A DNA stretch of 64,000 nt from an uncultured bacterium (lineage in GTDB: Bacteria > Krumholzibacteriota > Krumholzibacteriia > Krumholzibacteriales > Krumholzibacteriaceae): positions 28,285 through 92,284 of the forward strand of contig CAZREW010000006.1 of the NCBI GenBank assembly GCA_964599375.1, given 5' to 3'. This document shows positions 28,883 to 62,649 of the stretch, piece by piece. Each line of letters begins with the position of its first letter. Within the stretch, counting starts at the first letter, position 1. The position numbers were made by a program, and so were the translations under genes. The notes beneath the pieces were generated by a model. The model saw only the letters and a program-made list of their open reading frames with translations, was not told the DNA's origin and did no database searches.

Positions 28883-30346
28883 ATGATATCACTTGAACTC
28901 GACATAATATGCTCTGACTCCGATGTCCTGGGGACCACAGCAACAGACTGCGCTGAATCAGGATGGGAAGTGTCGAAGTTCTCCAGCGTGAGCGATTTCG
29001 TATCGAAAAGAGAGAAATCGGCCCCGCCCGCACTTATATTTGCCGGATCGGAAGTCGCCGGAAACAAGGACATCACTCCGGACGTCAAGACTCTGATAAG
29101 CTGGCACGGCCGGAATCCCGCCACCCAGCTTATCCTGCTGATACCGGAGGGCCTGAAAAACGAGGACAATGTCGCGCTGAGCCTGGGTGCGCGGCACCAG
29201 CTTCACATGCCATACGAGAGACGGGGCCTTCATCTTATCCTCAGCCAGATCGCCAGTGGCCTGGGTAAGCGCAAGCTTGATGAGGCCATCCGGGAAAGAG
29301 TGGCTAAACCGGAAGGGTTCGATGACATCATTGGCGTCAGCGATGCAATGCAGGAAATAATCGCCCTGGCGATCAAGGTCGGAAAAAGCGACTGCACATC
29401 GGTCATGATCACCGGCGAGAATGGCACCGGCAAGGGAGCCCTCGCTGGAGCCATCCATCAGATAAGTGCCAGGTCCTCCGGGCCGCTCATAGAGGTCAAC
29501 TGCGCGGCGATCCCTGCCAAGCTGCTTGAAAGCGAGTTCTTCGGCTACGAGAAGGGTGCTTTTACCGATGCCAAGGAAAGAAAGATGGGGCTGTTCGAGG
29601 TCGCCAACGGGGGGTCTATATTTCTCGATGAGGTCGGTGAGATCGACTTCAACCTCCAGGCAAAGCTCCTCAAGTTCCTCGATTCGAGGACTATAAGGAG
29701 GGTCAGCGGCACCCAGTTCCTGCCCGTAGACGTCAGAGTGATCTCAGCTACAAACAGAGACCTGAAGGCTGACGTTGAACTCAAGCGGTTCCGGGCCGAC
29801 CTCTATTACAGGCTCAACGTCGTGGAAATAAGGATCCCTCCGCTTCGAAACCGCAGGGAGGATATCCGCCCCATCGCCGAGACGTACACGAAAAAGTTCT
29901 CCAGCCGCCTGAAGAAGGGGGGTGTCACCCTCTCGAAAGACGCTTTCTCGCTTCTCGAGCGATACTCATGGCCTGGTAACATCAGGGAGCTGATAAATCT
30001 CATCGAGCGCGCAGTCCTCCTCAACACGACCGGGACCATTCATGCTTCCGACCTGCCGATCGACACGGAGACCCGCATTGAGGAAACAACCTGCCATGTC
30101 AAGAAAGAGAACGGAACCCTGAAGATCGATATTCCACCCGAAGGAGTCAGCCTCGAGCAGGTTGAAAAGGCAGTGATCGTAGGGACCCTGCTCAGGACTG
30201 AGGGTAATATCACCCGCGCGGCCCACCTTCTTGGGGTAGAACGGGGAACGCTGAGATACAAGATGAAGAAACACGGAATAGACGCTCACGAGCTTAAGGA
30301 AAAAATCAAAACCGGCGAATATGAGCCGGCTTGTATAACAAACTGA
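28883..30346 (+). CDS. Sigma-54-dependent activator (EBP) with atypical receiver-like N-terminus; GAFTDA loop variant
   Basis: GENGTGKGA P-loop, GAFTDA in place of GAFTGA, RFRADLYYRL, C-terminal HTH (ITRAAHLLGVERGTLRYKMKK). Confidence 0.75.
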   Translation: MISLELDIICSDSDVLGTTATDCAESGWEVSKFSSVSDFVSKREKSAPPALIFAGSEVAGNKDITPDVKTLISWHGRNPATQLILLIPEGLKNEDNVALSLGARHQLHMPYERRGLHLILSQIASGLGKRKLDEAIRERVAKPEGFDDIIGVSDAMQEIIALAIKVGKSDCTSVMITGENGTGKGALAGAIHQISARSSGPLIEVNCAAIPAKLLESEFFGYEKGAFTDAKERKMGLFEVANGGSIFLDEVGEIDFNLQAKLLKFLDSRTIRRVSGTQFLPVDVRVISATNRDLKADVELKRFRADLYYRLNVVEIRIPPLRNRREDIRPIAETYTKKFSSRLKKGGVTLSKDAFSLLERYSWPGNIRELINLIERAVLLNTTGTIHASDLPIDTETRIEETTCHVKKENGTLKIDIPPEGVSLEQVEKAVIVGTLLRTEGNITRAAHLLGVERGTLRYKMKKHGIDAHELKEKIKTGEYEPACITN

Positions 30347-31300: not shown

Positions 31301-31337
31301 ATTGATTTTCTCAAAGTACTTCTTAAAATCCCATTCC

Positions 31338-34300
31338 ATGGTTGAGAAGTATGGATTTCCTTTAAGGTACAGCAAGTTATCGACACTGGGTTCTGGTGGA
31401 ATCGGAACGGTTTTCAAAGCTTTCGACTCCCAACTTGACAAAGAAATCGCCATAAAGATTCTGAATAATCTAGATCGCGATCTATCAGCTTCTTTAGAGA
31501 ACGAATTCTCCACGCTGATCTCGCTGAACCATCCCAATTTGATAAAGGTATATGATTTCGGTCAGAGTGATTCAGGGCATTCATACTTCACTATGGATTT
31601 AATTCATGGGCAAAATTTAAATGATTATTTCTCATCTTCTTTGAAAGTCAGTTCTACCACTGATATTCTCGTGGGCATTCTTGATGCCCTTAGCTATTTG
31701 TCAAAAAGAAACATAATACACGGAGATATCAAACCTGAGAACATACTCATTCCTGATGGAAACGATTCACACCCAGTGCTTGTAGATTTTGGGCTTGCTC
31801 TTATTGCAGATTCAAATCAAGACAAAGTGTTCGGGACACCAAGATTTCTTGCTCCGGAGATCCTGTTATCAAAACAGTATTCCTCAAAAAGCGATCTTTA
31901 TGCTCTTGGACACACATTTATAGAAAGCTTAACAAAGCACAAGACAGTACTTGCTCATGAGTTGACTGATAGTTATCTAAGCGATGCATATGAATCTCTA
32001 TGTTACCTCTTCGAAGAGAGGGACATTGAATATCCGAGGAATCTAGCTTCATTCATTGTCAGTCTCTCCAATCCATCTCTTTCTTTACGTCCAGACACTA
32101 TTTCACAAGCTATTCTTAAACTATCGACAATTTCTACGCCTTCATGCGAAGCAAACACAATTCTTAACCCTGAATACGTTGCTCGAGAAGAAATCGACAA
32201 TTCTATTGAAATATTTATAGATAAGAACAGTTTTGACAATAGATCTCTTTTACTTGAAGGCCCTATTGGTACCGGAAAGAGAACACTGATGGGAAGAGCT
32301 ATCAGTAAAGCTCAGTTATTGAAATTCAAGGTTTTAATGTATAGCGATATTCCTGAAGAAAGATTCTCTCTAAATGTTTTTATAGATTCGCTCTCAATGA
32401 ATCTGCCTGCTCCGCTGAGTAATAATTTGTTTGAACAACACAACCGACTTTTAAATAGCATCAAGAAGGCTGAAGCAACTCCAGACCTTGATAACCTGGG
32501 AGTAATTTATAGCAATATCATTGAACATATTTCGCTCCTTTCAAAGGAACAGCCGGTATTAATCGTTATTCCAAACATCGAAAGTCATGGAACTGATACC
32601 TTAAGATTTATCAAGCACTTAGTAGACGAAATAGACTATCTCGGCGCGAAGGCAAAGATTCTCTTATCTCATTCAACAGATCACATTCGTGACAACACTT
32701 TTTACGAACAACTAAGTTCGCTTAAACACAATCTATCTCTCCTACATATTCGAGGATTTAGTGCATCAGAAATAAAACAGTACTGTCACAATATTTTTGG
32801 ATGCGATTTGTTTACAAATGGAGAAATCAATTCCTTTTTGTCTATCACAAATGGGAATCCTCAATATCTTTTCGACTACTTAAACTACCTGATAATGAAC
32901 GGAATCATTACTAAGAATGAGCGAACATATTATGCGGACCATAAACAAATAAATAGGACATATTCTCTGACTAGAAATGATGTAATCGTTGATAGTATAA
33001 TTTCTCATTTACTCCCTGATGAATTGCATTTCCTTCAATTACTTTCTATTTATGATTATCCAATTGACATCACTCATATGAAATTTTTTATCTCCTATGA
33101 TCTGCCAACTATAATCGATACTTGTGAAATTGCATCATTAATAGAAACGCACAACGGCATAATATGTTTGAAGTCCCCAGCCTTTAAATATCACCTCAAT
33201 AATAATATTAATGATTCTTTACAAATATCGCTTAATCGAATCCTTGCTGATTATTCAGTTAAAGCTAACCCAAATAACTACGCATTAATAGCAAATCATT
33301 ATATCAAGGCGCATGCAATAGATGAGGCCTATGAATACGCAACCAGAGCATATGAAAAGCACCTTGCGCAACATGAGTATTATTCAGCCTATAATCTATT
33401 TGTTTCTCTTAGTAATTTGATTGAAGACATTAATAGTACAGAGATCAAAATTGATATATTGGAAAAATTGAGTTCTCTGGAGTTCACACTGGGGTATTCA
33501 GACGATTCTCTAAATAACTATTTAAAGCTAATAGATATATCTACTGACCAAATTTCTATTGCTAGGTATTACAACAAAATCGGGCGTATAGAGCGCTACT
33601 TCAGAGGAAATACGAATAAGGCAGTCGAATATTTTAATCGTGCTCTTGACATAGCCAAAAAGAATGCAGCAACTGAAGTTGAAGCCGAGGCATTGCTGTC
33701 TCTTGGACTCGCATTACAAAATGCTTCGTTTGTGGAAGCATCAGCCGATCTTTCTAAAGGAATTCTTTTAAATCAATATGTTCGTGCTTTAGGAATAGCT
33801 ATGCAATTGTACACTTTTTCAGGGAATTCAGAGAAATGCCAAACAATTGAGGTAGAACTTGATAGGTACCTCTCAACCGATGATCCAACTATTCTTTCAT
33901 ATATATACGATGCAAAATACCTATACTCATTCTATACAGGTGTCTATTCGGTAGCTGACACCATGCTTCGAAACCTTATCGATCTTGCAAAACGCTCATT
34001 TAATGAAACGGCGCGCATCCGACACCTGAATGCTCTGGGAAGCATATATTACTCTCAAGGCAAATTTAGGCTCCAAATCGATACATTAAGGAATGCTTAT
34101 CATCTTGTTAATAAATATCAATTCCCCCTGCATAGAATACTGACTCTTTCCAACATGGCATTAGCCCATGTTGCACTTGCAGAATATTCAATAGCCATTC
34201 GGTTGATTATCGAAGTTAGATCATACGCAGAAAAGCATAAGTTGTCTAATATACCAACTTACCATTATTCTATTGGAGCTGGAGCATTCATGCCACTCGG

Positions 34301-34934
34301 CAAACTACAAAACGTTAATTTTCATAGATATCTAGAGTTGCTCAAGGAAACAGCGGAAAAGTCCAAAAATATTATCAGCCTTGGCCACATGGATCTTAAA
34401 TATGGAGACTATTACTACTTTGCAGATCAGTCCAATGATTCGAAGAAACATTATTTAAAGTCAATCGACATTTTTCGAACCACGAACGCCAAAGACGACA
34501 TGCTGGAGGCTTTGCTGAAGCTTTCGCTTGTGCACAGGAACATTAACGATCACAAAATGGCGCATGACTATGCGAGGCAAGCGGCGAAGATATTCAGGGA
34601 GATTAATTGCGGGTATCTGAAGCCGCTGTACAGCTATGTCATGGCGTTGAACGAGTGCCACGATGATCCCGAGTCCCTGGCCCCGATGCTGGAGGCGATA
34701 AACGTCTCCAGGGCATTCGGGACCAGGGAGTGGACATGGCAGATCCAGTTTCACCTGGCGCGGCTGTACAGAGAGGCTGGCGACATCTCCAATTCAGTGA
34801 AATACTGCAGGGAATCGATCAACACCCTCAAGGAGATAACCGAATCGTTCGACGATCCGGACCAGACATCCTCCTACCTGCAGGTGCCGCTCAGGCGTCA
34901 GGTCTTCGATTTCGTGAAGTCCTTGAGATCCTGA
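31338..34934 (+). CDS. Hanks-type Ser/Thr protein kinase fused to STAND/AAA-like NTPase and TPR repeats (PknK-like architecture); AT-rich, mosaic GC
   Basis: Kinase motifs GSGGIGTVF, IAIKIL, HGDIKPEN (non-RD), DFGLA, GTPRFLAPE. P-loop LLEGPIGTGKRT. Long TPR-like C-terminus. The first ~3.15 kb is AT-rich and the last ~450 nt are GC-rich. ATG 31338 preferred over TTG 31302, which overlaps the upstream terminator. Confidence 0.8.
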   Translation: MVEKYGFPLRYSKLSTLGSGGIGTVFKAFDSQLDKEIAIKILNNLDRDLSASLENEFSTLISLNHPNLIKVYDFGQSDSGHSYFTMDLIHGQNLNDYFSSSLKVSSTTDILVGILDALSYLSKRNIIHGDIKPENILIPDGNDSHPVLVDFGLALIADSNQDKVFGTPRFLAPEILLSKQYSSKSDLYALGHTFIESLTKHKTVLAHELTDSYLSDAYESLCYLFEERDIEYPRNLASFIVSLSNPSLSLRPDTISQAILKLSTISTPSCEANTILNPEYVAREEIDNSIEIFIDKNSFDNRSLLLEGPIGTGKRTLMGRAISKAQLLKFKVLMYSDIPEERFSLNVFIDSLSMNLPAPLSNNLFEQHNRLLNSIKKAEATPDLDNLGVIYSNIIEHISLLSKEQPVLIVIPNIESHGTDTLRFIKHLVDEIDYLGAKAKILLSHSTDHIRDNTFYEQLSSLKHNLSLLHIRGFSASEIKQYCHNIFGCDLFTNGEINSFLSITNGNPQYLFDYLNYLIMNGIITKNERTYYADHKQINRTYSLTRNDVIVDSIISHLLPDELHFLQLLSIYDYPIDITHMKFFISYDLPTIIDTCEIASLIETHNGIICLKSPAFKYHLNNNINDSLQISLNRILADYSVKANPNNYALIANHYIKAHAIDEAYEYATRAYEKHLAQHEYYSAYNLFVSLSNLIEDINSTEIKIDILEKLSSLEFTLGYSDDSLNNYLKLIDISTDQISIARYYNKIGRIERYFRGNTNKAVEYFNRALDIAKKNAATEVEAEALLSLGLALQNASFVEASADLSKGILLNQYVRALGIAMQLYTFSGNSEKCQTIEVELDRYLSTDDPTILSYIYDAKYLYSFYTGVYSVADTMLRNLIDLAKRSFNETARIRHLNALGSIYYSQGKFRLQIDTLRNAYHLVNKYQFPLHRILTLSNMALAHVALAEYSIAIRLIIEVRSYAEKHKLSNIPTYHYSIGAGAFMPLGKLQNVNFHRYLELLKETAEKSKNIISLGHMDLKYGDYYYFADQSNDSKKHYLKSIDIFRTTNAKDDMLEALLKLSLVHRNINDHKMAHDYARQAAKIFREINCGYLKPLYSYVMALNECHDDPESLAPMLEAINVSRAFGTREWTWQIQFHLARLYREAGDISNSVKYCRESINTLKEITESFDDPDQTSSYLQVPLRRQVFDFVKSLRS

Positions 34935-36503: not shown

Positions 36504-38996
36504 TCACGTGCGGCGGTAGTACCTGTCGAGGCCCGTCTTCTTCAGCTCCTTGTACAGCTTGCCTCTAGAGATCCCCAGCCAGCGCGCCGCCGCGCTCTTG
36601 TTGCCCCTGCAGATGTTCATCGCGCTCTCGATCCTGCGCCTGCTGCTGTCGCCGTTTCCCTGGAAATCCAGATCATGCGTACCTGCCGGAACTCCAGTCA
36701 TCCTGTCAGGCAGCATCTCGATCGTGATGGGAGAATCGCTCGCATAGCAGCTCAACCTGTCAGCGATCGATATCAGCTCTCTGACGTTGCCGGGCCAATG
36801 ATATTTCTGGAAGACAGAGAGCACGCCCCGGTCGATCCGCACCGTTCTTCCGCCGTTACCGTTGCCGTTTCCACAGAGGCGCCAGACCATAAGGGGGATG
36901 ATATCCTCACGGCGGTCACGCAGCGGAGGGATATGGATCCTTTCCGAGTTGATCCTGAAGAAAAAATCCTCCCTGAGCGACAAATCGCTCAGTTTGCTTC
37001 CTAGATCCTGATTCGTGGCTGAGACCAGTTTTATATCGACCTCTTGCTCGCCGTTCTCCCCGAGCCTTCTGATCCGCCCTTCCTGCAGCACCCTGAGCAA
37101 CTTGGCCTGGTGAAGCGTCGACAGCTCCCCCACTTCATCGAGAAAGAGCGTGCCTCCACTCGCTTCCTCGAAGAAGCCACGCCTGTCAACGACGGCGCCG
37201 GTGAACGAGCCTTTCCTGTGCCCGAAGAATTCGCTCTCGAAGAGATGGTCCGGGATCGCAGCGCAGTTGACGGCTACGAAGGGACCCGAAGCCCTCTCGC
37301 TCGAATTGTGGATCAGCCTGGCGACAAGCTCCTTTCCCGTTCCGGTCTCTCCCGTCACCAGGACCGGCCCCCTATATGACGCCGCGAACTGTATCCTCTC
37401 CCAGACATCGTGCATGACGGGCGATACGGCTACCATTCCGTTGCAGACCTTGTAGTCGCTCGAGAAACCTACCTCTATCAGATCTGAGTCAGTTTCACCG
37501 CTCTGGTACAGCCTGGCGGGCACCGCGCCGCCCCGTCTTTCGTGGCCGAGCAGGCTGTCTACCCGATCGACCATGAGCTGTGCGTTCATACCGGCGAAAA
37601 GATGGCGGGCTTCCCAGAGCAGGCTCCAGGGCTCAACCGCCTTGCTGTTTCCCGTGATCTCCGCCTTTTGGGCCTTATCCGTCCTCGACAAAAGGGTCTC
37701 CGCATATATGAGGCAGGTCCTGGCCAGCTCGAATGTGCTTCCCGATCTCCTGATAAGAGCCTGCGCGCGCTCAAAAAGTGCCTTTACGGTGTCGAGATCC
37801 ACGCGGCAGGCTTCCGCCCTGCCCATGGCCCTGAAGACAAGACCCAGCTCAAGTGGAGCGTCCAGTCCCCCGGCAATGCTCTCTGCATCCTCGAGACGAT
37901 CCCTTGCCGCTTTAATATCGCCCCGCGCGATCTCGAGCTCGCCCGTCTTCCTGGCGATCTCAGCGGCCACGTCACCGACGGGGGCAATCTCCGACACGAT
38001 GTCCCGAGCCCGGGCCAGGCAGTTCTGCGCCATCACCAGATCGCGCCTGCTGATGTGTATCGAAGCTATGCCGGACAGGGACAGGGCCAGTTCTCGCCTG
38101 TAGCCCTGCTCCTTCGCGAGCCGGGAGGCGTCCGAAAAGAGCTCGAGCGCCTCATCGAGGGCATCGCGCCTGCTGGCCGCGTTTCCCAGGGCAATAAGGC
38201 ACCTGCACCTGCCGATATGCCAGTTTACACGCTCGAAGAGCGAAGTGGCCTTGATGAACGACCGCTCGGCCGAGTCGCTCTCGCCCATGTGGAACTGCGT
38301 TATTCCGAGATTGAGCAGGGCTGCCGCGAGGCCGTACTCATCATCGTTCTTCGAGCATGCGGCAGCCGCCCTTCTGAGGTCGTCGGCGGCTTTTCTCATG
38401 AAGCCGAGCCTTCTGAGGACGAGCCCCATCATCGTCAGGACCCTGGCTCTCAACTTCCAGCTCGACACCGAAGTCGTAAGCCCTAGGGCGGTCTCGAGGA
38501 TCTCCCTGGCACGCAGGGTATCATCGAGGAAATAGCAGCAGGCTCCCTCGATAAGGTATTTCTCCCCCGCCAGCGTTCCGTCGAGACAGTTCTCGACCGA
38601 CCCATCCATATCATCAAGCTCCTGCAGCGCGGCGCGGTATTCTCCCTGCCTCCTGAGGATATTCGCCCTGATCACGGCTGCTTCATAACGCTCGCAGCAG
38701 GCGTCGACCTCGACTGACCGGATAAGCTCTGCAAGCATGTCGAGGTATATCGAGCTTTCGTCGAATCCGCTCAGATAGTAGGAGTTCCTGGCAGCGAGAA
38801 GGAGGACGCGCGCTTCCATCTCGAACGGGACAGGCTCCCGCTCGATGGCGGACAATGCCTCTCTCGTCGCTATAAGCGCACTCCTGTAGTCACCTGTGGC
38901 CTGGTGGCCCTGCGCTTCGGTTATGTACCTGTCCACGGTCTCGTGTCGTTTACGCATGGTATCGGTCGGCCCCGTGCTATCTGAATATCGGTCCAA
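36504..38996 (-). CDS. Sigma-54-dependent activator with large N-terminal TPR-repeat domain (TPR-AAA+-HTH)
   Basis: ETGTGKE, GSFTGA, FFFRINSERIHIPPLRDRRED, C-terminal HTH. ~480-aa N-terminal region of TPR-like helical repeats. Confidence 0.8.
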   Translation of the reverse strand: MDRYSDSTGPTDTMRKRHETVDRYITEAQGHQATGDYRSALIATREALSAIEREPVPFEMEARVLLLAARNSYYLSGFDESSIYLDMLAELIRSVEVDACCERYEAAVIRANILRRQGEYRAALQELDDMDGSVENCLDGTLAGEKYLIEGACCYFLDDTLRAREILETALGLTTSVSSWKLRARVLTMMGLVLRRLGFMRKAADDLRRAAAACSKNDDEYGLAAALLNLGITQFHMGESDSAERSFIKATSLFERVNWHIGRCRCLIALGNAASRRDALDEALELFSDASRLAKEQGYRRELALSLSGIASIHISRRDLVMAQNCLARARDIVSEIAPVGDVAAEIARKTGELEIARGDIKAARDRLEDAESIAGGLDAPLELGLVFRAMGRAEACRVDLDTVKALFERAQALIRRSGSTFELARTCLIYAETLLSRTDKAQKAEITGNSKAVEPWSLLWEARHLFAGMNAQLMVDRVDSLLGHERRGGAVPARLYQSGETDSDLIEVGFSSDYKVCNGMVAVSPVMHDVWERIQFAASYRGPVLVTGETGTGKELVARLIHNSSERASGPFVAVNCAAIPDHLFESEFFGHRKGSFTGAVVDRRGFFEEASGGTLFLDEVGELSTLHQAKLLRVLQEGRIRRLGENGEQEVDIKLVSATNQDLGSKLSDLSLREDFFFRINSERIHIPPLRDRREDIIPLMVWRLCGNGNGNGGRTVRIDRGVLSVFQKYHWPGNVRELISIADRLSCYASDSPITIEMLPDRMTGVPAGTHDLDFQGNGDSSRRRIESAMNICRGNKSAAARWLGISRGKLYKELKKTGLDRYYRRT

Positions 38997-39898: not shown

Positions 39899-41548
39899 AT
39901 GAGCACGAAAAAGAAGGACCCGACGAAGGATTTTTACGAGGATGTCGAGAGTGACCTCGACCATCTCGAGGGATCAGTAGCGGTCAGACAGAGCAAGGAT
40001 ATTTCGGGCCAGCTCGCTGAAAGCAGGCATCGCGTGCAAAAGCTCGAGATGCTGACAGAGATCACGCAGGCGATGAACTCGACCCTCAATCTCAACGAGC
40101 TCCTGTCGCACATCGTCGATTCGACGATCAAGATCGCCGACATGGACCGCGGGTTCCTGATGCTCAGGAACAAGGCCGGCGAGCTCGAGTTCCGGATAGC
40201 GAGAAGCAGCAGGCAGCAGAATCTCGGCGAAAACGACTTCGAGGTCAGCCATACGATCATAGGGGAAGCCGCAGACAAGGGCAAACCCCTCTTCATCTCC
40301 AATCTGGACAAGAACGGCAGGTACAAGGACCAGGAGAGCGTGCTCGACCTGCAGCTCAAGACTGCCGTCTGCCTCCCCCTTATACGCGACGATGTGGTGA
40401 TCGGCGTCATCTATACCGACGCCAGCAGGCTCAGTATCGAGATCGAGAAGGAGGACATGCCGATCTTCGAGGCATTTGCCGTCCAGGCTGCGATCGCGAT
40501 CGAGAACGCGCGGCTTCACGGCGAGCTGCTTCTTTCCAAGGAGAACCTCACAAGGGAGAACCTCGAGCTCAGGGCGGTCCTTTCCGAGAAGTACGAATTC
40601 TCCGGTATAATCGGCAAGAGCAAGGCGATGCAGGAGATCTTCACCACGATAAGGAAGATCTCCCCGTTCGATACGACCGTCCTGATCACCGGTGCCACAG
40701 GGACAGGCAAGGAGCTCATTGCCAAAGCCATCCATTTCAACGGTCCCCGCAAGACGAATCCTCTGGTCACGATAAACTGCGGAGCGATGGCGCCCGAGCT
40801 CCTCGAGAGTGAGCTCTTCGGACACAAGAAGGGGTCGTTCACAGGCGCAGTCAGCGACAAGCCCGGACTGTTCGAGACCGCAAGCGGCGGCACCCTCTTT
40901 CTAGACGAGATAGGCGACATGCCGCAACCGCTGCAGGTAAAGCTCCTGCGCGCCCTTCAGGAAGGTGAGATAAGGAGGATCGGGGAGAATACAAACCGTC
41001 ACGTGGATGTCCGGGTCATAGCAGCGACAAACCGCGACCTCAAGGAGGACATCGAGGCCGGCAGGTTCCGCCAGGACCTCTACTACAGGCTCAACGTGGT
41101 CCCCATCACCATACCGCCTCTGAATGAGAGGGGGGAGGATATACTGCCCCTGACTCAGCATTTCCTCGAGAAGTACTCCGCGAAGATGAACAAGGGCGAA
41201 GTCGGGATAGCCCCCGATGTCATGAAGATGATACTTGCCAATCCGTGGCCCGGTAACGTAAGGGAGCTCGAGAACACTGTCGAGAGGGCGCTCGCGCTCT
41301 GCGGCGACTCCACCACCCTGTCGATGATCCATTTCCCGCAACTCGGTCACGGCGGCCTAATACTAGGCGGCGTGGATTCTGGACGTTCGCTGAAGGAAAA
41401 GATGCGGGTGGTCGAGAAGCAGTTCATCATCGAGGCCCTGGAGGAAACGGGCGGAAAGATAACTAGGGCGGCGGAACTGCTTGATGTGACACGTCAGCAC
41501 CTTCATAATAAGATCCGGCAGTACGAGCTCAACAGAAAGAAGCGCTGA
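39899..41548 (+). CDS. Sigma-54-dependent activator with N-terminal GAF domain
   Basis: GAF-like region (GFLMLRNKAGELEF...VCLPLIRDDVVIGVIYTD), GATGTGKE, GSFTGA, RFRQDLYYRL, C-terminal HTH. Confidence 0.85.
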   Translation: MSTKKKDPTKDFYEDVESDLDHLEGSVAVRQSKDISGQLAESRHRVQKLEMLTEITQAMNSTLNLNELLSHIVDSTIKIADMDRGFLMLRNKAGELEFRIARSSRQQNLGENDFEVSHTIIGEAADKGKPLFISNLDKNGRYKDQESVLDLQLKTAVCLPLIRDDVVIGVIYTDASRLSIEIEKEDMPIFEAFAVQAAIAIENARLHGELLLSKENLTRENLELRAVLSEKYEFSGIIGKSKAMQEIFTTIRKISPFDTTVLITGATGTGKELIAKAIHFNGPRKTNPLVTINCGAMAPELLESELFGHKKGSFTGAVSDKPGLFETASGGTLFLDEIGDMPQPLQVKLLRALQEGEIRRIGENTNRHVDVRVIAATNRDLKEDIEAGRFRQDLYYRLNVVPITIPPLNERGEDILPLTQHFLEKYSAKMNKGEVGIAPDVMKMILANPWPGNVRELENTVERALALCGDSTTLSMIHFPQLGHGGLILGGVDSGRSLKEKMRVVEKQFIIEALEETGGKITRAAELLDVTRQHLHNKIRQYELNRKKR

Positions 41549-42082: not shown

Positions 42083-43093
42083 TCAGCAGTCCTTCTTCTC
42101 CCGTAACACTATGCCGTGCCTGCGCATACGATACAGGAGAGTCGTCCTCTTCAGGCCGAGGATCGACGCCGCCCTGCTGTGGTTCGACCCAGCCCTCCTG
42201 AGGGCGCCCAGTATCTCCTCCCTCTCAAACCTGCGGAGCTTTCCGTCGAGCCCTGTCTGGTCCCCGGGCGTGGGATCGAGGAGACCGGACACTATCCCTG
42301 CCGGGAGATCCGTCATCTCGAGCCTGCCCGAACACTTTCTCAGGGCCGCCGCGACTACCTCGTTCTGAAGCTGCCTGACATTGCCCGGCCAATCGAACGA
42401 CTCGAGGGCAAGCTGTGCCGCGGGCGAGACCGTCAGCGGCCCTATCGAGTATTCAGAGACCAGGCGTGATATGAAATGAGAGGAGAGAGGCATTATGTCG
42501 GCTTTGCGCTCACGCAGCGGGGGAATCCGGAAAACGACCGCGGACAGCCTGTAATACAGGTCGTCCCTGAAGGAACCCAGCTCTATTTCAGCTGGCAGGT
42601 CGCGGTTTGTGGCCGCGACGACCCTCGCGCCAGATCTTCTCGCGACACTCTCGCCTACAGGCATATACTCCCCTGAATCGAGGAATCTCAGGAGTCTTGC
42701 CTGGGCCCCGGGATCCGCTTCACCGATCTCATCGAGAAACAGCGTACCTCTGTCGGCTGCGGCGGCGAGGCCGGACTGATGCCTCACGGCGCCGGTGAAC
42801 GCTCCCTTGACATGACCGAAAAGGAAACTCTCGAACAGGTCTCCACGGAGAGTGGAAGCATTAACGGGGATAAAAGGGGATCTCGCCCTGCCGCTCCATC
42901 TGTGGATAAGCCTGGCAACGACTTCCTTGCCCGTGCCGGACTCTCCCGTTATAAGGACCGGCACCGGAAACGGGGATATCCTGCGGATCTCATCGAGGAG
43001 TCCCTTCATGGCTGGATCAGCTGTGATGAAGGCTGGCGATTTTTCCTTCTGCATATCGGTCGGTCCGCCCAGCCGGATGCCCGCATCCGACAC
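42083..43093 (-). CDS. Sigma-54 activator lacking a sensory domain (AAA+ plus HTH only; PspF/HrpS-like)
   Basis: GESGTGKE, canonical GAFTGA, FRDDLYYRL, C-terminal HTH. Only ~25 residues precede the AAA+ core. GTG at 43093 has GGGGGAG 7 nt upstream; ATG 43054 is an alternative. Confidence 0.8.
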   Translation of the reverse strand: MSDAGIRLGGPTDMQKEKSPAFITADPAMKGLLDEIRRISPFPVPVLITGESGTGKEVVARLIHRWSGRARSPFIPVNASTLRGDLFESFLFGHVKGAFTGAVRHQSGLAAAADRGTLFLDEIGEADPGAQARLLRFLDSGEYMPVGESVARRSGARVVAATNRDLPAEIELGSFRDDLYYRLSAVVFRIPPLRERKADIMPLSSHFISRLVSEYSIGPLTVSPAAQLALESFDWPGNVRQLQNEVVAAALRKCSGRLEMTDLPAGIVSGLLDPTPGDQTGLDGKLRRFEREEILGALRRAGSNHSRAASILGLKRTTLLYRMRRHGIVLREKKDC

Positions 43094-58653: not shown

Positions 58654-58681
58654 TTGACATCAGGCGGGAATCTGCTATAAT
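58654..58681 (+). promoter_or_regulatory. Near-consensus sigma-70 promoter TTGACA-N16-TATAAT upstream of the NadE-like/carrier/ligase cassette
   Basis: Read directly, ~55 nt upstream of start 58734. Confidence 0.55.
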
Positions 58682-58733
58682 ATTCCGGTATGTAAAAGCA
58701 GCCAGGGGGAGATAGAAACAGGGGACAGGTCTA

Positions 58734-59699
58734 TTGAATTTCAATAAGGACAGCCTAAAGATCGATGCCGGCCGTGTTGCCGAAGAACTGGCCCGGTCCG
58801 TGCGGACGCAGATCCGGAGCAAACTCAGGAAAACCGGGGCGGTAGTAGGTATTTCAGGTGGGCTGGATTCATCGGTGGTAGCGGCCCTTTGTGTCAAGGC
58901 GCTGGGGCCCAAACGGGTTGTCGGGATCATGATGCCGGAAGAGGATTCCTCTCCGGACAGCCAGAAACTGGCGCAGGACCTGGCTGACAGGCTCGGCATA
59001 GAAACGGTCGTCGAGAACATCACGCCGGGTCTCGAGGGCCTGAAGTGCTACAGCCGTAGAGATGAAGCGATCAGGCAGATCTTCCCGGAATACGACAGCA
59101 CATACAAGAACAAGATAACGATCTCCACCAACATCCTCGAGGATGAGACTTTCAATTTCTTCAACCTCACGATCGAGAGCCCGGGCGGCGAGGAAAAAAC
59201 GATGCGCATGCCAGTCTCGGCGTATCTCCAGATCGTGGCAGCCTCCAACCTCAAGCAGAGGCTCCGCATGACTATGCTCTATTATCACGCGGAGAAACGC
59301 AACTATGCCGTGGCAGGCACCGGCAACAAGGACGAACACGAACAGGGATTCTTCGTCAAATACGGCGACGGCGGCGCAGATCTGAAACCGATCGCGCATC
59401 TGTTCAAGATGCAGGTCTTCCAGCTTGCCGAAGAGCTGTCCGTAGGCCACGATATAATCGGGCGCATCCCGACTACGGATACTTACAGCGCCGGTTCCAC
59501 CCAGGAAGAGTTTTTCTTCGGTCTCGACTTCTTCCGGATGGACATGCTGTGGTATGCGATGGAAAACAAGGTTTCTTCTGCCGAAGCCGCCGCTGTGCTT
59601 GGTCTTACGCCGCATCAGGTCGAGAGAGGGTACGCCAATATCCAGCGAAAGATCGACGCCACGGAATATCTCCGGATGTATCCGCTTGAAATAGAGTAG
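58734..59699 (+). CDS. NAD synthetase-family PP-loop ATP pyrophosphatase (NadE-like, no glutaminase domain), copy 1
   Basis: PP-loop VGISGGLDSS and NadE-specific FFVKYGDGGADLKPI. TTG start. Confidence 0.7.
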   Translation: MNFNKDSLKIDAGRVAEELARSVRTQIRSKLRKTGAVVGISGGLDSSVVAALCVKALGPKRVVGIMMPEEDSSPDSQKLAQDLADRLGIETVVENITPGLEGLKCYSRRDEAIRQIFPEYDSTYKNKITISTNILEDETFNFFNLTIESPGGEEKTMRMPVSAYLQIVAASNLKQRLRMTMLYYHAEKRNYAVAGTGNKDEHEQGFFVKYGDGGADLKPIAHLFKMQVFQLAEELSVGHDIIGRIPTTDTYSAGSTQEEFFFGLDFFRMDMLWYAMENKVSSAEAAAVLGLTPHQVERGYANIQRKIDATEYLRMYPLEIE

Positions 59700-59791
59700 C
59701 GTACCGACTGACAAAGCAGATTGTGTCCTAAAATGAATGTACACTGTAAAAGATGATTAAGAGGCCCGGGGAACAGAGGTAAGTATCGGCT

Positions 59792-60049
59792 ATGGCACAA
59801 AAAGAAAAGATCCGCAAGGATATCAGGGATTTCATCACTAAGTCGTTTTTAACGGGTGATGAAAACGAAAATCTCAGCGACTCTGATTCGTTCATGAAGG
59901 AAGGCATAATAGATTCGACCGGCGTGCTGGAACTGGTATCCTTTCTCGAGAAACAATACGGCTTTGCTGTCAAAGATGACGAGATGACTCCGGGCAATCT
60001 TGATTCGATAGACAATCTGGTGATATTCATATCGGGGAAACTCGGCTGA
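59792..60049 (+). CDS. DltC-like carrier protein (phosphopantetheine attachment site EGIIDS)
   Basis: 85 aa. EGIIDSTGVLELVSFLE closely resembles the D-alanyl carrier protein motif EGIIDSF..V.LL. Confidence 0.65.
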   Translation: MAQKEKIRKDIRDFITKSFLTGDENENLSDSDSFMKEGIIDSTGVLELVSFLEKQYGFAVKDDEMTPGNLDSIDNLVIFISGKLG

Positions 60050-60095
60050 CCGCATCTCAGGGCGATCATCCTTAAATAAGAGCGTTCGTGGGATA

Positions 60096-61640
60096 ATGAC
60101 TGTATTCCAATTATTATCAAAAAGCGTGGAGATGTTTCCTGACAGGACGGCGGTCACTCATGACGGCCGTCACACGGATTTCAGCCAGCTTTACAGTGCC
60201 GCATGCCACCTTTCAGACCGCCTCGGAAGGCTTTCGCTTCCCGAGGGATCTCCAGTCGGACTGCTTTACGAGAATTCGCTGGAATACGTCATCTCATTCT
60301 TCGCCATCCTGAGGGCAGGCCTCGTGGCCGTGCCCCTGGACACTTCGCTGGACCTCGACAGCCTGAGGTTCGTCTTGTCAGACTGTGACGCGAGGGTCCT
60401 TCTGGTCGATTCAAGGTTCCGCCGTATCCTTCCCGGGATAGTTGCCGGGAATTCCCCCGTTGAGCGTATCTTCTCAGACAAAAAGATCGGCAGCGGGCGC
60501 GATGACCTGGAAGTCGAAGCCGTGATAAATACTGAGGAAGAATCTCTGCCAGACATGGATTCCCTGCCACTCGGCGACACGGAAGACGATGAAGAAAAGC
60601 TCGCCGCCATCTTTTACACTTCCGGCAGCACGGGCACACCAAAGGGCGTGATGCTATCGCACCGTAACCTCGTCAGCAATACACTGGCGACGATAGAGTA
60701 TCTGAAACTGACCAGAGATGACAGCGTGATAGTCATCCTTCCATTTTATTACATCTACGGCAATTCCCTGCTTCTCACCCATGTCGGATGCGGCGGCAGG
60801 CTGGTGATCGATAATCGATTCCTGTACCCTGAAGCGATCCTCGATACGATGGAAAGCGAGAACGTGACCGGCTTTTCGGGAGTACCTTCGAATTTCATGA
60901 TCCTTCTCGGCAAATCCACCTTCGCCAAACGTGAATTGCCGGCGTTGAGATATTTCACGCAGGCCGGTGGCGCCATGGCGCCGGAGATCGTCAGGCAGCT
61001 CATGGATGCCTTCCCGGAAAAAGAGATCTATATCATGTACGGCCAGACCGAGGCCGCTCCGCGAGTGACCTGGCTTCCCCCGGAGATGCTGAAAGAGAAG
61101 CTTGGATCGATAGGCATAGCCGTGCCCGGCGTCACTGTTTTAGTCGCGGACGATAAAGGAAATGAGCTTCCCACCGGAAAGGTGGGTGAGATCGTGGTGG
61201 ATGGCCCGAATGTGATGATGGGCTATTGGAATCACGCGGATGAAGAGCGTGAAGTCCTCAGGAACGGACGGCTGTTCACTGGTGACCTGGCAAAAAAAGA
61301 CGAGGATGGCTACATCTATGTCGTGGGCCGCAGGAAAGAGATCATAAAGACAGGGGGCAATCGAGTCAGTGTAAAAGAGGTCGAAGAGTGCATCCTGGAA
61401 AGCAACGGGATCCTGGAGGTCGCCGTGTTCGGTGTGGATGATCCCGTTCTGGGCGAGGCAATAAAGGCTGTGATTGTCAACAAGAAGGGCTGCAGTGCCG
61501 ACACTGTTGAAATCACCGACTTTTGCCGCTCTCGGCTCGCGGCACATAAAGTGCCCAAGATCATAGAGTTTGCCCAGTCGTTACCCAAGACGAAATCCGG
61601 CAAGCTGGACAAGAAAAAACTGAAAGACCAATGTCGATAG
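60096..61640 (+). CDS. Adenylate-forming (AMP-binding) ligase, DltA/acyl-ACP-synthetase-like
   Basis: YTSGSTGTPKGV, YGQTE, GDL, and C-terminal catalytic Lys region KSGKLDKKKL. Confidence 0.8.
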   Translation: MTVFQLLSKSVEMFPDRTAVTHDGRHTDFSQLYSAACHLSDRLGRLSLPEGSPVGLLYENSLEYVISFFAILRAGLVAVPLDTSLDLDSLRFVLSDCDARVLLVDSRFRRILPGIVAGNSPVERIFSDKKIGSGRDDLEVEAVINTEEESLPDMDSLPLGDTEDDEEKLAAIFYTSGSTGTPKGVMLSHRNLVSNTLATIEYLKLTRDDSVIVILPFYYIYGNSLLLTHVGCGGRLVIDNRFLYPEAILDTMESENVTGFSGVPSNFMILLGKSTFAKRELPALRYFTQAGGAMAPEIVRQLMDAFPEKEIYIMYGQTEAAPRVTWLPPEMLKEKLGSIGIAVPGVTVLVADDKGNELPTGKVGEIVVDGPNVMMGYWNHADEEREVLRNGRLFTGDLAKKDEDGYIYVVGRRKEIIKTGGNRVSVKEVEECILESNGILEVAVFGVDDPVLGEAIKAVIVNKKGCSADTVEITDFCRSRLAAHKVPKIIEFAQSLPKTKSGKLDKKKLKDQCR

Positions 61641-61659
61641 AAGGAAGAGAGGGCCGCGG

Positions 61660-62649
61660 ATGAGACCGATCAGAGATATTCTGAAGACAGACCCAAAACG
61701 TGAGAGCGTCATCGTTCAGGAATTCTTGTCAGCGCATACTAAAGGGACACCCAAGAGAGACGGCATAATCGTCGGCGTAAGCGGCGGGATCGATTCCGCG
61801 GTGGTCGCGGCGCTGGCCGTTGCGGCGGTAGGAAAAGACAAGGTCTTCGGCATGATCCTTCCCGAAAAGGATTCGAACCCTGATTCGGCTAAATTCGCCC
61901 GGCTGGTCATTAACAACCTCGGCATCAGGCACGAGACGATGGACCTGACAGACGCCGTCGGCAGCTTCGGCGCTTACCGGACGAGAGATGAGGTCATCAG
62001 ATCGATATTCCCTGAATATGACGAAAGTTACAAATTCAACATACGCCTGCCCCAGAACCTGCTCGAGGTAGACCGATACAATTTCTATACGCTGCGTATC
62101 GATAACGGCAAAGGTGACACCAGGGAGACACGCCTTGCGAAGAGTCAGTTCCTGGCCATCACCGCCGCCGCCAACGTGAAGATCCGTTCCAGGATGATCG
62201 CCCTTTATTTCCTTGGCGAACAGATGAACTACATGGTGGCTGGCACGACCAACAAGACGGAATTCCTGCTTGGCGATTTCTGCAAGTACGGCGACGGCGG
62301 AACAGACGTCGAGTGCGTCTCGCATCTGTACAAGACGCAGATCTACCAGCTCGGCGAGTTTTTCGGGACGCCAAAGGAGATCATGGACCGTACCCCGAGC
62401 CCGGACACATTCAGCCTGGCAGTATCCGACAAGGATTTCTATTTCTGCCTTCCGTTCGACATACTCGATCCCCTGCTGTACGCGTGGGAATACAAGCTGG
62501 ATACAGATGCCGTGGCGGGAGAGCTGGGCCTTGAGCCCGAGCAGATCGAACGAGCCTACCGCGATTTCGACTCCAAGCACTCAACGACGGAGCATATCCG
62601 GAGGCTCCCCCCGGCGATCGAACGCGACTGGCGGGAATACGCGGGGTGA
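61660..62649 (+). CDS. NAD synthetase-family PP-loop ATP pyrophosphatase (NadE-like), copy 2
   Basis: VGVSGGIDSA PP-loop and FCKYGDGGTDVECV. Paralogous to the copy at 58734. Confidence 0.7.
   Translation: MRPIRDILKTDPKRESVIVQEFLSAHTKGTPKRDGIIVGVSGGIDSAVVAALAVAAVGKDKVFGMILPEKDSNPDSAKFARLVINNLGIRHETMDLTDAVGSFGAYRTRDEVIRSIFPEYDESYKFNIRLPQNLLEVDRYNFYTLRIDNGKGDTRETRLAKSQFLAITAAANVKIRSRMIALYFLGEQMNYMVAGTTNKTEFLLGDFCKYGDGGTDVECVSHLYKTQIYQLGEFFGTPKEIMDRTPSPDTFSLAVSDKDFYFCLPFDILDPLLYAWEYKLDTDAVAGELGLEPEQIERAYRDFDSKHSTTEHIRRLPPAIERDWREYAG

Follow-up and report, generated by a model that had tools for sequence, protein, structure and literature searches.

Two genes of the NAD synthase (NadE) family bracket a carrier protein gene and an adenylating ligase gene in the analyzed window, a 64,000-nucleotide stretch of DNA, which raises the question of whether this cassette serves NAD synthesis or a different pathway dependent on the carrier.

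Organization of the four-gene cassette

Four co-oriented ORFs in the order N1–carrier–ligase–N2 were found on the + strand downstream of a sigma-70-type promoter (58654..58681, + strand; TTGACA-16-TATAAT with a TG extension upstream of the −10 element, 12 of 12 consensus matches). N1 (58734..59699, +, 321 aa, TTG start) and N2 (61660..62649, +, 329 aa) are NadE-like PP-loop amidoligases of clades A and B, respectively (PF02540, NF002048), and between them lie the genes of a dedicated acyl carrier protein (ACP) of 85 aa (59792..60049, +) and of an ANL-superfamily adenylating ligase of 514 aa (60096..61640, +). The intergenic gaps were 92, 46, and 19 nt, and the + strand showed no terminator-like site in any of them. 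The first-pass annotation, which described two NadE-like paralogs bracketing a carrier and a 514-aa AMP-binding ligase behind one near-consensus promoter, was therefore accurate on these points. The TTG start of N1 was kept in six of six aligned sequences, and promoter-like sites were present at the same position in the relatives L008, L009, and L010. The cassette is bordered by minus-strand genes encoding a polyprenyl synthase upstream and TatC downstream. It is best explained as a self-contained operon comprising a widespread NadE-like/ACP/acyl-ACP ligase module and a second amidoligase.

The IIDSTG motif of the carrier was located by motif search at nt 59906-59923 (aa 39-44, +), with Ser42 as the predicted phosphopantetheine attachment site. 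The best NCBIfam matches of the carrier were NF052616 (58 bits; cut-off 130) and the AmcB ACP. Its identity with the SMb20651-type ACP of S. meliloti was 40.5%, with an identical IIDSTGVLELV core, and, judged by its sequence, it is an ortholog of acyl carrier protein SMb20651. The EGIIDS motif had initially been read as a DltC signature; this reading was not supported, since no NCBIfam DltC model matched the carrier at E ≤ 0.01 and the protein is an SMb20651 ortholog instead. The DltA/DltC and AlmE/AlmF systems resemble the cassette in having a small carrier with an (E/D)GxxDS motif and a stand-alone ANL ligase, which loads the carrier for envelope-polymer modification. However, in addition to the carrier lacking a DltC model match, the cassette ligase most resembles acyl-CoA ligase models and its A4 motif is of the acyl type, whereas the two systems themselves have no PP-loop enzymes. 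Nor was any transferase of the DltB/DltD or AlmG type seen for the cassette.

The ligase matched PF00501 and PF13193 (E = 4e-86) and contained the ANL motifs A3 (YTSGSTGTPKG, nt 60615-60647, +), A5, A7, A8, and A10 (lysine motif PKTKSGK, nt 61584-61604, +). The nearest NCBIfam models were NF004837 and TIGR03098, both below cut-off, the latter being the nearest specific one, and the identity with the SMb20650-type ligase was 35%. The A4 motif, LPFYYIYG, is presumably of the acyl-CoA-synthetase type as opposed to the amino-acid-activating type. The ligase is probably an acyl-ACP synthetase for the adjacent carrier. The initially suggested HMM searches with PF02540, PF00550, and PF00501 thus matched the NadE-like proteins and the ligase, and the carrier weakly (19.1 bits, below the PF00550 cut-off of 20.8).

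Counterparts and distribution of the module

Azospirillum and the S. meliloti replicon pSymB each carry a single block with these same four functions. The pSymB operon asnB-smb20651-smb20650-nadE1 was described by Ramos-Vega et al. (2009, Microbiology 155:257), whose work is summarized in PMC7232532: SMb20651 was experimentally shown to be an ACP cotranscribed with smb20650, and SMb20650 acylates holo-SMb20651 in vivo and is unable to replace FadD. The module is not a newly seen one, the S. meliloti operon having been described, and partly tested, as early as 2009. The operon contains a clade-A NadE-like protein with 48% identity to N1, which falls within NF002048 and has the highest score for this model (532 bits), a carrier (40% identity) and a ligase (35%) similar to those of the cassette, and, like the cassette, is set apart from sugar genes. 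It differs in gene order (asnB-ACP-ligase-nadE versus N1-ACP-ligase-N2) and in having a glutamine-dependent AsnB-type amidotransferase where the cassette has the clade-B protein N2. Rather than a novel type of locus, the cassette is the form that a widespread module takes in Krumholzibacteria; what is new here is the second NadE-like paralog in place of AsnB.

The block proved to be conserved, as had been proposed for checking: N1 orthologs lay no more than 7 kb from a carrier and/or ligase gene in 32 of the 35 evaluable genomes, only two N1 loci among these 35 were without any partner, and the linkage spanned at least 8 phylum-level groups. Among 66 loci, N1 was linked to ACP in 48, to the ligase in 42, and to a dehydrogenase in 8. 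The fourth position of the module is occupied by N2, in many genomes by an AsnB-type (WbpS-like) amidotransferase, or is empty. N2 and AsnB alternate at this position and co-occurred in 0 of the 66 loci; they are interchangeable by position. The number of NadE-like copies was two or three per locus, alternating with AsnB. In a few genomes, N1 was alone (L017 and L018; Ignavibacteriales genomes with a lone N1 were also found), and in loci of the N1-AsnB-ACP type and in L057-L060, N1 and ACP were present without an ANL ligase.

Family, residues, and structure of N1 and N2

N1 and N2, which are 41% identical, matched PF02540 NAD_synthase (E = 2e-51 and 3e-49, respectively), and chance is ruled out because of the HMM E-values obtained for the cassette. 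The PP-loop motif SGG(L/I)DS (SGGLDS in N1, nt 58854-58871, +; SGGIDS in N2, nt 61780-61797, +; aa 41-46 in both) and the KYGDGG motif (nt 59358-59375 and 62284-62301, respectively, +; aa 209-214 in both) were located, and a CN-hydrolase/glutaminase domain was found in neither protein, which agrees with the NadE hallmarks initially reported. Both proteins passed TIGR00552 and NF002048 (PRK00876; 449 bits for N1 and 355 bits for N2, cut-off 313), and their identity with canonical NadE was 27-30%. The AlphaFold model of N1 (pLDDT 86.9) had the NadE fold (TMt 0.83 against P. horikoshii 2E18, the nearest NadE of solved structure, and about 0.7 against NadE of B. subtilis and of E. coli). Canonical NH3-dependent NadE (B. 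subtilis 1KQP/2NSY, E. coli 1WXI) shares with N1 and N2 this fold, the PP-loop, the Mg and ATP ligands, K170, D173, the KYGDGG motif, and the absence of a glutaminase domain. Unlike canonical NadE, N1 and N2 were below the cut-offs of the NCBIfam NadE equivalog models, are operonic with ACP and ligase genes, and carry a common family-specific insertion of ~45-65 aa with invariant Tyr and Arg residues (about aa 97-160 in N1), modeled as two helices and a three-stranded sheet.

According to the residue table, the PP-loop, Mg, ATP, and catalytic positions were all invariant in N1 and N2. Y32, L153, E223, and K258 were replaced in both proteins, H257 was replaced in N1, and the pocket of N2 was changed (F167D, T169C, F129T), whereas N1 retained the nicotinate-side residues N133, R137, F167, F168, K170, and D173. 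The residue identities were verified, while their functional roles are assumed from the B. subtilis structures; the replaced positions are presumably those that hold the adenylyl half of NaAD. Thus, of the NaAD-binding residues proposed for comparison with NadE, those presumed to contact the adenylyl half were lost and those on the nicotinate side were kept in N1. From these residues, N1 and N2 look catalytically competent yet not NaAD-specific; a pyridine-carboxylate or NaAD/NaMN-type substrate is possible for N1, because it keeps the nicotinate-side residues.

The module copies in S. meliloti and Azospirillum are orthologous to N1, with which they share 47-48% identity. The pSymB replicon is dispensable except for engA and tRNA-Arg (PMC4207669), and Azospirillum brasilense makes NAD via NadE1Gln and NadE2Gln (PMC7196632). 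Hence, the NadE-like protein of the module is not needed for NAD in these alphaproteobacterial carriers. It is improbable that N1, perhaps backed up by N2, truly acts as an NH3-dependent NAD+ or NMN synthetase with the carrier and ligase as mere neighbors, although the passing of PF02540 and TIGR00552, the NadE fold, the catalytic and nicotinate-side residues of N1, the lone N1 in some Ignavibacteriales genomes, and the name NAD(+) synthase given in all sources fit such a role, and no further nadE was found in the 64-kb window. The linkage to ACP and ligase across phyla and the two or three copies alternating with AsnB argue against it, and NAD-pathway genes were seen in none of the module neighborhoods. 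Because N1 and N2 failed the equivalog models, the positions taken to hold the adenylyl half were changed, and the alphaproteobacterial orthologs are dispensable or supernumerary, it is very probable that the NadE-like genes do not encode housekeeping NAD synthases; the proposal that at least one copy is repurposed was thereby supported.

Very little credence is given to N1 being a thioester-forming enzyme with LarE-like chemistry, in which the adenylated carboxylate would pass to a thiol (the carrier phosphopantetheine or its own Cys105). If true, this would make N1 a non-ANL carrier loader in the ligase-less loci, whose existence speaks for it; nevertheless, a dedicated ligase is present in most loci, and D173, the proposed ammonia handler in NadE, is invariant. 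Weak LarE matches in the PP-loop region also speak for it but are limited to generic PP-loop likeness. Likewise in its favor, Cys105 of the insertion is kept by the S. meliloti and Azospirillum copies and by 50 of 56 clade-A sequences; however, several clade-A members and every clade-B protein have Thr or Ala there.

Surface-glycan pathways and proposed role

Frequent neighbors of the module were Wzz/Wzy, UDP-glucose dehydrogenase, CE4 deacetylase, hexapeptide and GNAT/FemAB-like transferases, and T9SS cargo; epimerase, Acetyltransf_6, and PorV genes were also seen. The suggested analogy with exosortase-associated amidotransferase/ACP/ligase trios was upheld by the nearest specific NCBIfam models, TIGR03098 for the ligase and TIGR03108 for the AsnB-type partners of module loci, and by one locus, L081, which adjoins an exosortase gene. 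The XrtA/exosortase-A (PEP-CTERM) EPS set, which consists of the TIGR03098 ligase, ACP, and TIGR03108 amidotransferase with FemAB-like TIGR03019 and a CE4 deacetylase, follows the same logic of ligase, carrier, and PP-loop amidotransferase. It differs in that the defined set has no NadE-like enzymes, and the TIGR03098 and TIGR03108 scores were below the curated cut-offs (379.5 versus 592 and 450 versus 817, respectively). The window ORFs that were examined included neither an exosortase nor a PEP-CTERM gene. The TIGR03108 family includes WbpS/WbqG.

In Bacteroidota, the Wbp/Vim linking-sugar pathway (WbpA/B/E/D, VimE, VimA, WbpS; PMC7468200) brings together uronic-acid formation, CE4 de-N-acetylation, and GNAT/FemAB-like re-acylation of the freed amine, and an AsnB-type enzyme amidates the uronic acid in an ATP-dependent manner; genetic evidence showed that WbpS forms a uronamide. 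The same partner types, plus T9SS cargo and PorV, surround the module in FCB-group genomes. However, the Wbp/Vim pathway has no ACP, ANL ligase, or NadE-like enzyme, the module-adjacent dehydrogenase is of the UDP-glucose type and not WbpA, and the neighboring Acetyltransf_6 protein scored below TIGR03019.

It is conceivable, though rather unlikely, that N1 and N2 never touch the carrier and, like WbpS/WbqG, make uronamides from uronic acids that are nucleotide-linked or part of a polymer, while the ACP and ligase separately contribute an N-acyl group to the same repeat unit. At least 8 loci have UDP-glucose 6-dehydrogenase and GalE/TviC-like epimerase genes directly beside N2 or AsnB, which is consistent with this, as are the replacement by N2 of an AsnB nearest to the family of uronamide-forming WbpS, and the CE4 and Acetyltransf_6 pairs adjoining the module in four loci. 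NaAD, too, is a carboxylate linked to a nucleotide, and N1 has kept the carboxylate-side pocket with changed nucleotide-side residues. On the other hand, the linkage of N1 to ACP and ligase far exceeds that to the dehydrogenase, loci with N1 and ACP only exist (L057-L060), and the four genes lie apart from sugar genes in this window, in L008 (a syntenic relative), and in S. meliloti, as does the module in many Ignavibacteriales loci. This isolation argues that the four proteins act on one shared intermediate.

A role outside NAD synthesis, in which an acyl-ACP arm and two ATP-dependent carboxylate amidations would modify a surface glycan or lipid, is the reading we favor with roughly even confidence. 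The ligase would adenylate a carboxylic acid and thioesterify it onto the phosphopantetheine of Ser42, as shown for the S. meliloti homologs. N1, which of all partners shows the tightest coupling to the carrier, would adenylate a free carboxylate of a pathway intermediate, most probably a carrier-tethered acyl group and not NaAD, and ammonia would replace AMP to give a carboxamide. We infer amidation of a carrier-tethered substrate, to which amidation of a uronic-acid sugar is an equally concrete alternative. In the 2009 S. meliloti study, SMb20651 in E. coli was reportedly acylated with C12:0/C18:0 fatty acids, which count against carrier-tethered amidation, because such acyl groups have no free carboxylate. 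Positional replacement suggests that N2 uses free ammonia for a further ATP-dependent amidation, a step that elsewhere would be carried out by the glutamine-dependent AsnB/WbpS-like amidotransferase; its target may be the same intermediate or a uronic-acid sugar. Judging from the neighborhoods, the amide-bearing group might then be transferred to a cell-envelope glycan or lipid by hexapeptide, GNAT, or FemAB-like acyltransferases, usually after CE4 de-N-acetylation. Such acyltransferases adjoin the module in many genomes and are proposed to be encoded elsewhere in this one.

Organization and setting of the four-gene cassette

The cassette extended from 58734 to 62649 and consisted of four co-oriented ORFs on the forward strand. 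The first encoded the NadE-like protein N1 (58734–59699, 321 aa, TTG start; PF02540, E-value = 2 × 10−51), followed by a predicted carrier protein (59792–60049, 85 aa; PF00550 score just below the gathering score), an adenylating ligase of the ANL type (60096–61640, 514 aa; PF00501 and PF13193), and a second NadE-like protein, N2 (61660–62649, 329 aa; PF02540, E-value = 3 × 10−49). A glutaminase domain was absent from both N1 and N2 in the Pfam domain search. The PP-loop motif (aa 41–46) was SGGLDS in N1 and SGGIDS in N2, with KYGDGG at aa 209–214 in both; the carrier had the motif IIDSTG, which includes Ser42, and the ligase had the ANL motifs A3, A5, A7, and A8 together with the lysine of A10. 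A promoter, TTGACA-16-TATAAT, was located at 58654–58681 (12/12 match, TG extension). The ORF calls, domain matches, motif search, and promoter match thus confirmed the first-pass annotation, in which four genes with such motifs had been described behind a near-consensus promoter. The intergenic gaps were 92, 46, and 19 nt, and no terminator-like sites were found between the cassette genes on the forward strand, which fits a single operon. Weaker versions of the promoter were present at the matching position in the nearest relatives. The TTG start codon (ATTGAAnTTCAA) of N1 was kept in six of the six aligned sequences (position 58734 in the window and loci L003, L008, L009, L010, and L011 of other genomes) and was preceded by a G-rich Shine–Dalgarno sequence in all six genomes, which span two phyla.

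The cassette was flanked by minus-strand genes encoding polyprenyl synthase (upstream) and TatC (downstream), within the order ArgRS–RsfS–radical SAM–polyprenyl synthase on one side and TatC–NrdR–SHMT on the other; these flanks were syntenic with those of a Krumholzibacteriota MAG, and the nearest homologs likewise carried Krumholzibacteria names, in keeping with a Krumholzibacteria-like MAG as source. In the closest relative, L008, an extra 331-aa gene (L008:13918–14990), absent from the window, lay between N2 and tatC; this gene belongs to a cluster of neighboring ORFs (x25) also found in L011, L024, and L036 and had no Pfam or NCBIfam match. No polysaccharide genes and no exosortase or PEP-CTERM genes were found among the window ORFs scanned (upstream, 10 ORFs scanned by Pfam), and no Rfam or tRNA matches came from a search for riboswitches and other RNAs that covered the leader of the cassette and the rest of the window. 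Neither a third nor a canonical nadE was found in the window or in ~1 Mb of retrieved flanking sequence. A homolog of AsnB, the glutamine-dependent amidotransferase of related loci, was absent from the window, where N2 fills that slot.

Family assignment, active-site residues, and clades

Both N1 and N2 passed TIGR00552, PF02540, and the subfamily model NF002048 (PRK00876.1; cut-off 313 bits), with 449.4 and 354.9 bits on the latter. The NadE-like protein of the Sinorhizobium meliloti pSymB module (asnB, the ACP gene smb20651, the ligase gene smb20650, and nadE1) scored 532.4 bits, so NF002048 in effect models the module-associated family. The NadE equivalog models were not reached, namely, NF010587 (186 against a cut-off of 255), NF001979 (86 and 81 against 250 for N1 and N2), and NF010588 (97 and 90 against 479).

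The carrier had initially been described as DltC-like, which was not borne out: its best matches were acyl carrier protein models (NF052616, 58 bits against a cut-off of 130, and AmcB of NCBIfam), and none was to the DltC model at E ≤ 0.01. DltA was absent from the best 25 of 107 ligase matches, all 25 being acyl-CoA ligase or related models, and neither DltB nor DltD was seen among the window ORFs examined. A D-alanylation function of the DltC/DltA type was consequently rejected, given the missing DltC match and the orthology of the carrier to an acyl carrier protein. Two other leads were also abandoned. The paper on OlsH/OlsI, to which the label "ACP_for_OlsHI" pointed, is silent on an ACP, and the score (58 against 130) indicates only distant resemblance; the terminal amidation domain of PKS/NRPS systems (bioRxiv 10.1101/2024.10.28.620694) has an AAR-like fold and is unrelated. 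The ligase was nearest to NF004837 and TIGR03098 (exosortase-A-associated ligase) and fell below both cut-offs (379.5 against 592.35 for TIGR03098). The AsnB partners in orthologous loci were nearest to TIGR03108 (XrtA/PEP-CTERM amidotransferase) and, scoring 450 against 816.9, are not members of it; by score, neither enzyme belongs to the XrtA/PEP-CTERM set.

Active-site residues were compared in an alignment of 56 N1-type and 11 N2-type sequences (window copies included), alphaproteobacterial copies, and the NadE proteins of E. coli and B. subtilis, the numbering of the latter being used for NadE positions. The B. subtilis reference sequence was identical to PDB 1EE1/1KQP, with 29/29 reference positions carrying the expected residue type. 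The PP-loop, Mg, ATP, and catalytic positions S46, G47, G48, D50, S51, R139, T157, E162, K170, D173, K186, P207, and D210 were invariant, as were N133, R137, Y144, and F168, while position 208 kept Thr in N1 and had the conservative replacement Ser in N2. Since the Mg/ATP/catalytic set of NadE (D50, E162, K170, D173, and K186, with Thr/Ser at 208) was kept in N1, N2, and both clades of the family, proteins of both types should, judging from their sequences, be catalytically competent adenylating amidoligases. Other positions were replaced: Y32 by Q (variable in N2), L153 by A in N1 and by M in the N2 of the window (L/M in clade B), E223 by F/Y, K258 by L/I, and H257 by Y in N1. Changes confined to N2 were F167D, T169C, and F129T. 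In the structural work on NadE (Rizzi 1996/1998; Symersky 2002), Y32, L153, E223, H257, and K258 reportedly hold the adenylyl half of NaAD, and F167, T169, and F129 belong to the nicotinate pocket. The alignment thus answered for both copies the question raised in the first-pass annotation: neither keeps the full set of NaAD-binding residues, N133, R137, Y144, and F168 being retained and the positions reported for the adenylyl side being replaced. The De Ingeniis 2012 survey of NadE and a paper on the Mtb and human NadE contained nothing on the NF002048 subfamily or on NaAD contacts of the NH3-type enzymes.

A family-wide insertion with no counterpart in canonical NadE separated the PP-loop region from the second conserved block (invariant residues of the insertion: Y106, R109, P118, N141, G152, and R158); it is a feature defined in the present analysis and not a curated criterion. 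In the AlphaFold model of N1 (pLDDT 86.9, pTM 0.86), it was modeled as two short helices and a three-stranded sheet, and the remainder fitted NadE structures (TMt 0.83 for 2E18 and 0.84 for 3FIU, an NMN synthetase of Francisella), leaving ~65 residues unmatched in the superposition. No solved structure of the NF002048-type subfamily was found. A catalytic role of Cys105 in the insertion was considered and is not claimed, since most but not every clade-A member has this residue and clade B lacks it.

The neighbor-joining tree divided the NadE-like family into two old clades. Clade A included N1, the S. meliloti, Azospirillum, and Gammaproteobacteria MAG sequences, and one copy of the metagenomic locus L081 (L081b), while clade B included N2, a PVC-group MAG sequence, the other copy of that locus (L081a), and the additional copies of the Aminicenantia and Clostridia MAGs. 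Since unrelated lineages have loci that contain members of both clades, the arrangement with two NadE-like genes is not a recent duplication, and the origin of N2 by recent local duplication was rejected. N2 proper (≥66% identity) was limited to Zixibacteria and Krumholzibacteria.

Conservation and genomic context of the module

Orthologs of N1 with 54–87% identity were found in 66 species-level genomes of Zixibacteria, Ignavibacteriales, Calditrichota, Krumholzibacteria, GN15, Aminicenantia, one Clostridia MAG, and one Gammaproteobacteria MAG. Five protein types were mapped onto these 66 loci, 35 of which had enough flanking sequence. In 32 of the 35, the carrier and/or the ligase lay within 7 kb of N1, and N1 was without partners in only two. 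The block expected to be conserved in related genomes was indeed conserved across several phyla, and clade-A NadE-like genes are tightly linked with the ACP and the ligase. The architectures included N1–ACP–ligase–N2, N1–ACP–ligase–AsnB, N1–ACP–ligase, N1–AsnB–ACP, AsnB–N1–ACP, and others. N2 and the AsnB-type enzyme share one slot and co-occurred in none of the 66 loci; by position, they interchange. Among PP-loop amidoligases, this is a clear example of non-orthologous displacement, with a putatively ammonia-dependent paralog of NadE in place of the glutamine-dependent AsnB. In loci L057–L060, which lack the ANL ligase, the ACP gene was transcribed divergently from N1, ~1.2–2.5 kb upstream of it, and clustered with genes for a hexapeptide transferase and a CE4 deacetylase; on the downstream side of N1 were genes for a LigT-like 2H phosphoesterase (L057, L059, and L060) and an M16 peptidase (L058–L060).

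A tblastn search of annotated plasmids matched 117 records, mostly pSymB-type plasmids of Sinorhizobium and also plasmids of Azospirillum, Mesorhizobium, and Rhizobium. The gene order was asnB–ACP–acyl-CoA ligase–nadE in S. meliloti and ACP–ligase–asnB–nadE–GNAT, within a polysaccharide locus, in Azospirillum thermophilum. The window and S. meliloti proteins had identities of 48% (N1), 40% (carrier), and 35% (ligase), and the core IIDSTGVLELV was common to the window carrier and the S. meliloti ACP.

Clustering of ~970 neighboring ORFs from 71 loci, with annotation by Pfam and NCBIfam, placed the ligase near the module in 46 loci and AsnB in 25, the ACP being recurrent too. Genes of surface glycan synthesis were frequent: Wzz chain-length determinants in 14 loci, hexapeptide acyltransferases in 10, and CE4 polysaccharide deacetylases in 8. 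SGNH/GDSL proteins, ~350-aa GNAT proteins (Acetyltransf_9), T9SS cargo proteins, PorV, GT2 and GT4 glycosyltransferases, and Wzy also recurred. A FemAB-like protein (Acetyltransf_6) was paired with the deacetylase in four loci and in L053 directly adjoined N1–ACP–ligase; its possible membership in TIGR03019 (cluster x29) was rejected, as only Pfam Acetyltransf_6 and no NCBIfam model matched. In a PVC-group locus, the order ACP–ligase–WbuX-like amidotransferase–NadE-like–GNAT–DUF362–deacetylase lay inside a Wzx/Wzy cluster, and in L081, ACP–AsnB–NadE-like–ligase–ligase–NadE-like stood beside an exosortase (EpsH) gene. The glycan context is frequent and not obligatory: the module lay outside sugar loci in the window, its syntenic relative L008, S. 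meliloti, and many Ignavibacteriales loci.

Several neighbors were recorded in addition. In the polysaccharide locus of the PVC group, the gene directly upstream of the clade-B NadE-like gene (L080:7970–8965) encoded another PP-loop enzyme, an N-acetyl sugar amidotransferase resembling WbuX/WbpG that scored 166 bits on TIGR03573 (cut-off 203). L081:15646–17511, beside the module of that locus, encoded a 621-aa protein with left-handed beta-helix (GlmU/hexapeptide-like) matches and an Exosortase_EpsH domain. In 22 loci (e.g., L039:8934–9800) of Ignavibacteriales, Calditrichota, and some Zixibacteria, the gene immediately upstream of N1 encoded a conserved ~288-aa protein with only a weak fn3 match and was often preceded by an M24 peptidase gene; it was absent from the window.

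Relation to known systems and putative function

The module of S. meliloti (smb20649–20652) is the nearest studied counterpart; it shares with the window a clade-A NadE-like protein, a dedicated ACP, and an ANL ligase encoded together, whereas it has a glutamine-dependent AsnB where the window has N2. As summarized in PMC7232532 from Ramos-Vega et al. 2009, the gene of the acyl carrier protein SMb20651 is cotranscribed with smb20650, co-expression of SMb20650 with holo-SMb20651 in E. coli yielded acylated SMb20651, and SMb20650 was unable to replace FadD in either S. meliloti or E. coli. Acylation of the holo-carrier by the ligase has thus been shown for the S. meliloti proteins, and Ser42 and the ANL motifs are present in the window cassette. 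The experiments on the homologs establish a genuine ACP and, in the ligase, its loading enzyme rather than a FadD; by analogy, the same would apply to the window pair. The function of SMb20651 is still given as unresolved in later papers (PMC5686131). The first-pass annotation had proposed an uncharacterized pathway; the kind of locus was already known, the S. meliloti operon having been studied (PMC7232532), and is functionally orphan. The variant in which a clade-B NadE-like protein replaces AsnB, with one NadE paralog on either side of the ACP and ligase genes, appears undescribed in the literature searched.

A genuine NAD synthase in the genome of the window would account for the features shared with canonical NadE (PF02540, the SGGxDS PP-loop, and the catalytic residues). 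The only essential single-copy genes of pSymB are engA and a tRNA-Arg gene, and S. meliloti without pSymB grows on minimal medium (PMC4207669), so the pSymB NadE-like gene is not the NAD synthetase of the cell; in Azospirillum brasilense, NAD is made by two glutamine-dependent NadE enzymes (PMC7196632). The NAD synthase reading is disfavored because of the equivalog scores below the cut-offs, the residue changes in the NaAD site, the operon conservation with the ACP and ligase, and the dispensability of the module NadE-like gene in alphaproteobacteria.

N1 and N2 would each convert a carboxylate into a carboxamide on a pathway intermediate. For N1 at any rate, we favor a carrier-tethered acyl group as substrate, because N1 is linked to the ACP far more often than to any sugar enzyme and because several lineages have the four genes as a self-contained operon, for which a shared intermediate is the easiest explanation. 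The main rival is amidation of uronic-acid sugars by the NadE-like enzymes, especially N2, with the ACP arm supplying an N-acyl group. WbpS, a TIGR03108 family member together with WbqG, was shown genetically to convert the uronic acid of the T9SS linking sugar of P. gingivalis into a uronamide; in this Wbp/Vim logic, CE4 deacetylation by VimE is followed by amino-acid transfer by the FemAB-like VimA, and an analogous sugar has been suggested for exosortase systems (PMC7468200). Genes for UDP-glucose 6-dehydrogenase and a GalE/TviC-like epimerase directly adjoined N2 or AsnB in at least eight loci, in support of sugar amidation; the much more frequent linkage of N1 to the ACP than to any sugar enzyme speaks against it. 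The unexplained ligase, ACP, and amidotransferase genes of exosortase loci are hereby tied to the logic of amidated, re-acylated uronic sugars.

It may tentatively be proposed, as a rather doubtful possibility, that PRK00876-type enzymes are the first NadE-family amidoligases acting on a carrier-tethered or ACP-delivered substrate and that, with the ACP and ligase, they build an undescribed amide-bearing acyl group for surface glycans in many phyla, possibly one linking exosortase- or T9SS-sorted proteins. In that case, the annotation "NAD(+) synthase" would be wrong for thousands of genes. Database proteins that receive this name through NF002048/PRK00876 number in the thousands and come from at least eight phylum-level groups; the data indicate that the subfamily is the PP-loop part of an ACP-dependent envelope-modification module and not an NAD enzyme. 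Metabolic reconstructions of uncultured FCB-group bacteria are affected: since these proteins are probably not NAD enzymes, completeness of the NAD pathway may be over-called. The module is not a categorically new system; it represents a widespread, mis-annotated, and tractable orphan pathway linked to exosortase/T9SS-type surface chemistry, and provides a testable hypothesis for the orphan operon smb20649–20652 in the genetically tractable S. meliloti.

Elsewhere in the window, the forward-strand gene at 31302–34934 encoded a Ser/Thr protein kinase of 1210 aa that also contained TPR repeats and an NPHP3_N/NTPase-like region; the surrounding region had a very low GC content (35% over 32–34 kb; GC3 0.39 against ~0.75 in neighbors), and the gene was probably acquired horizontally. 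Four sigma-54 enhancer-binding proteins were encoded within 15 kb (28883–30346 (+), 36504–38996 (−), 39899–41548 (+), and 42083–43093 (−)), and their N-termini differed (an unassigned region, TPR, GAF, and none).
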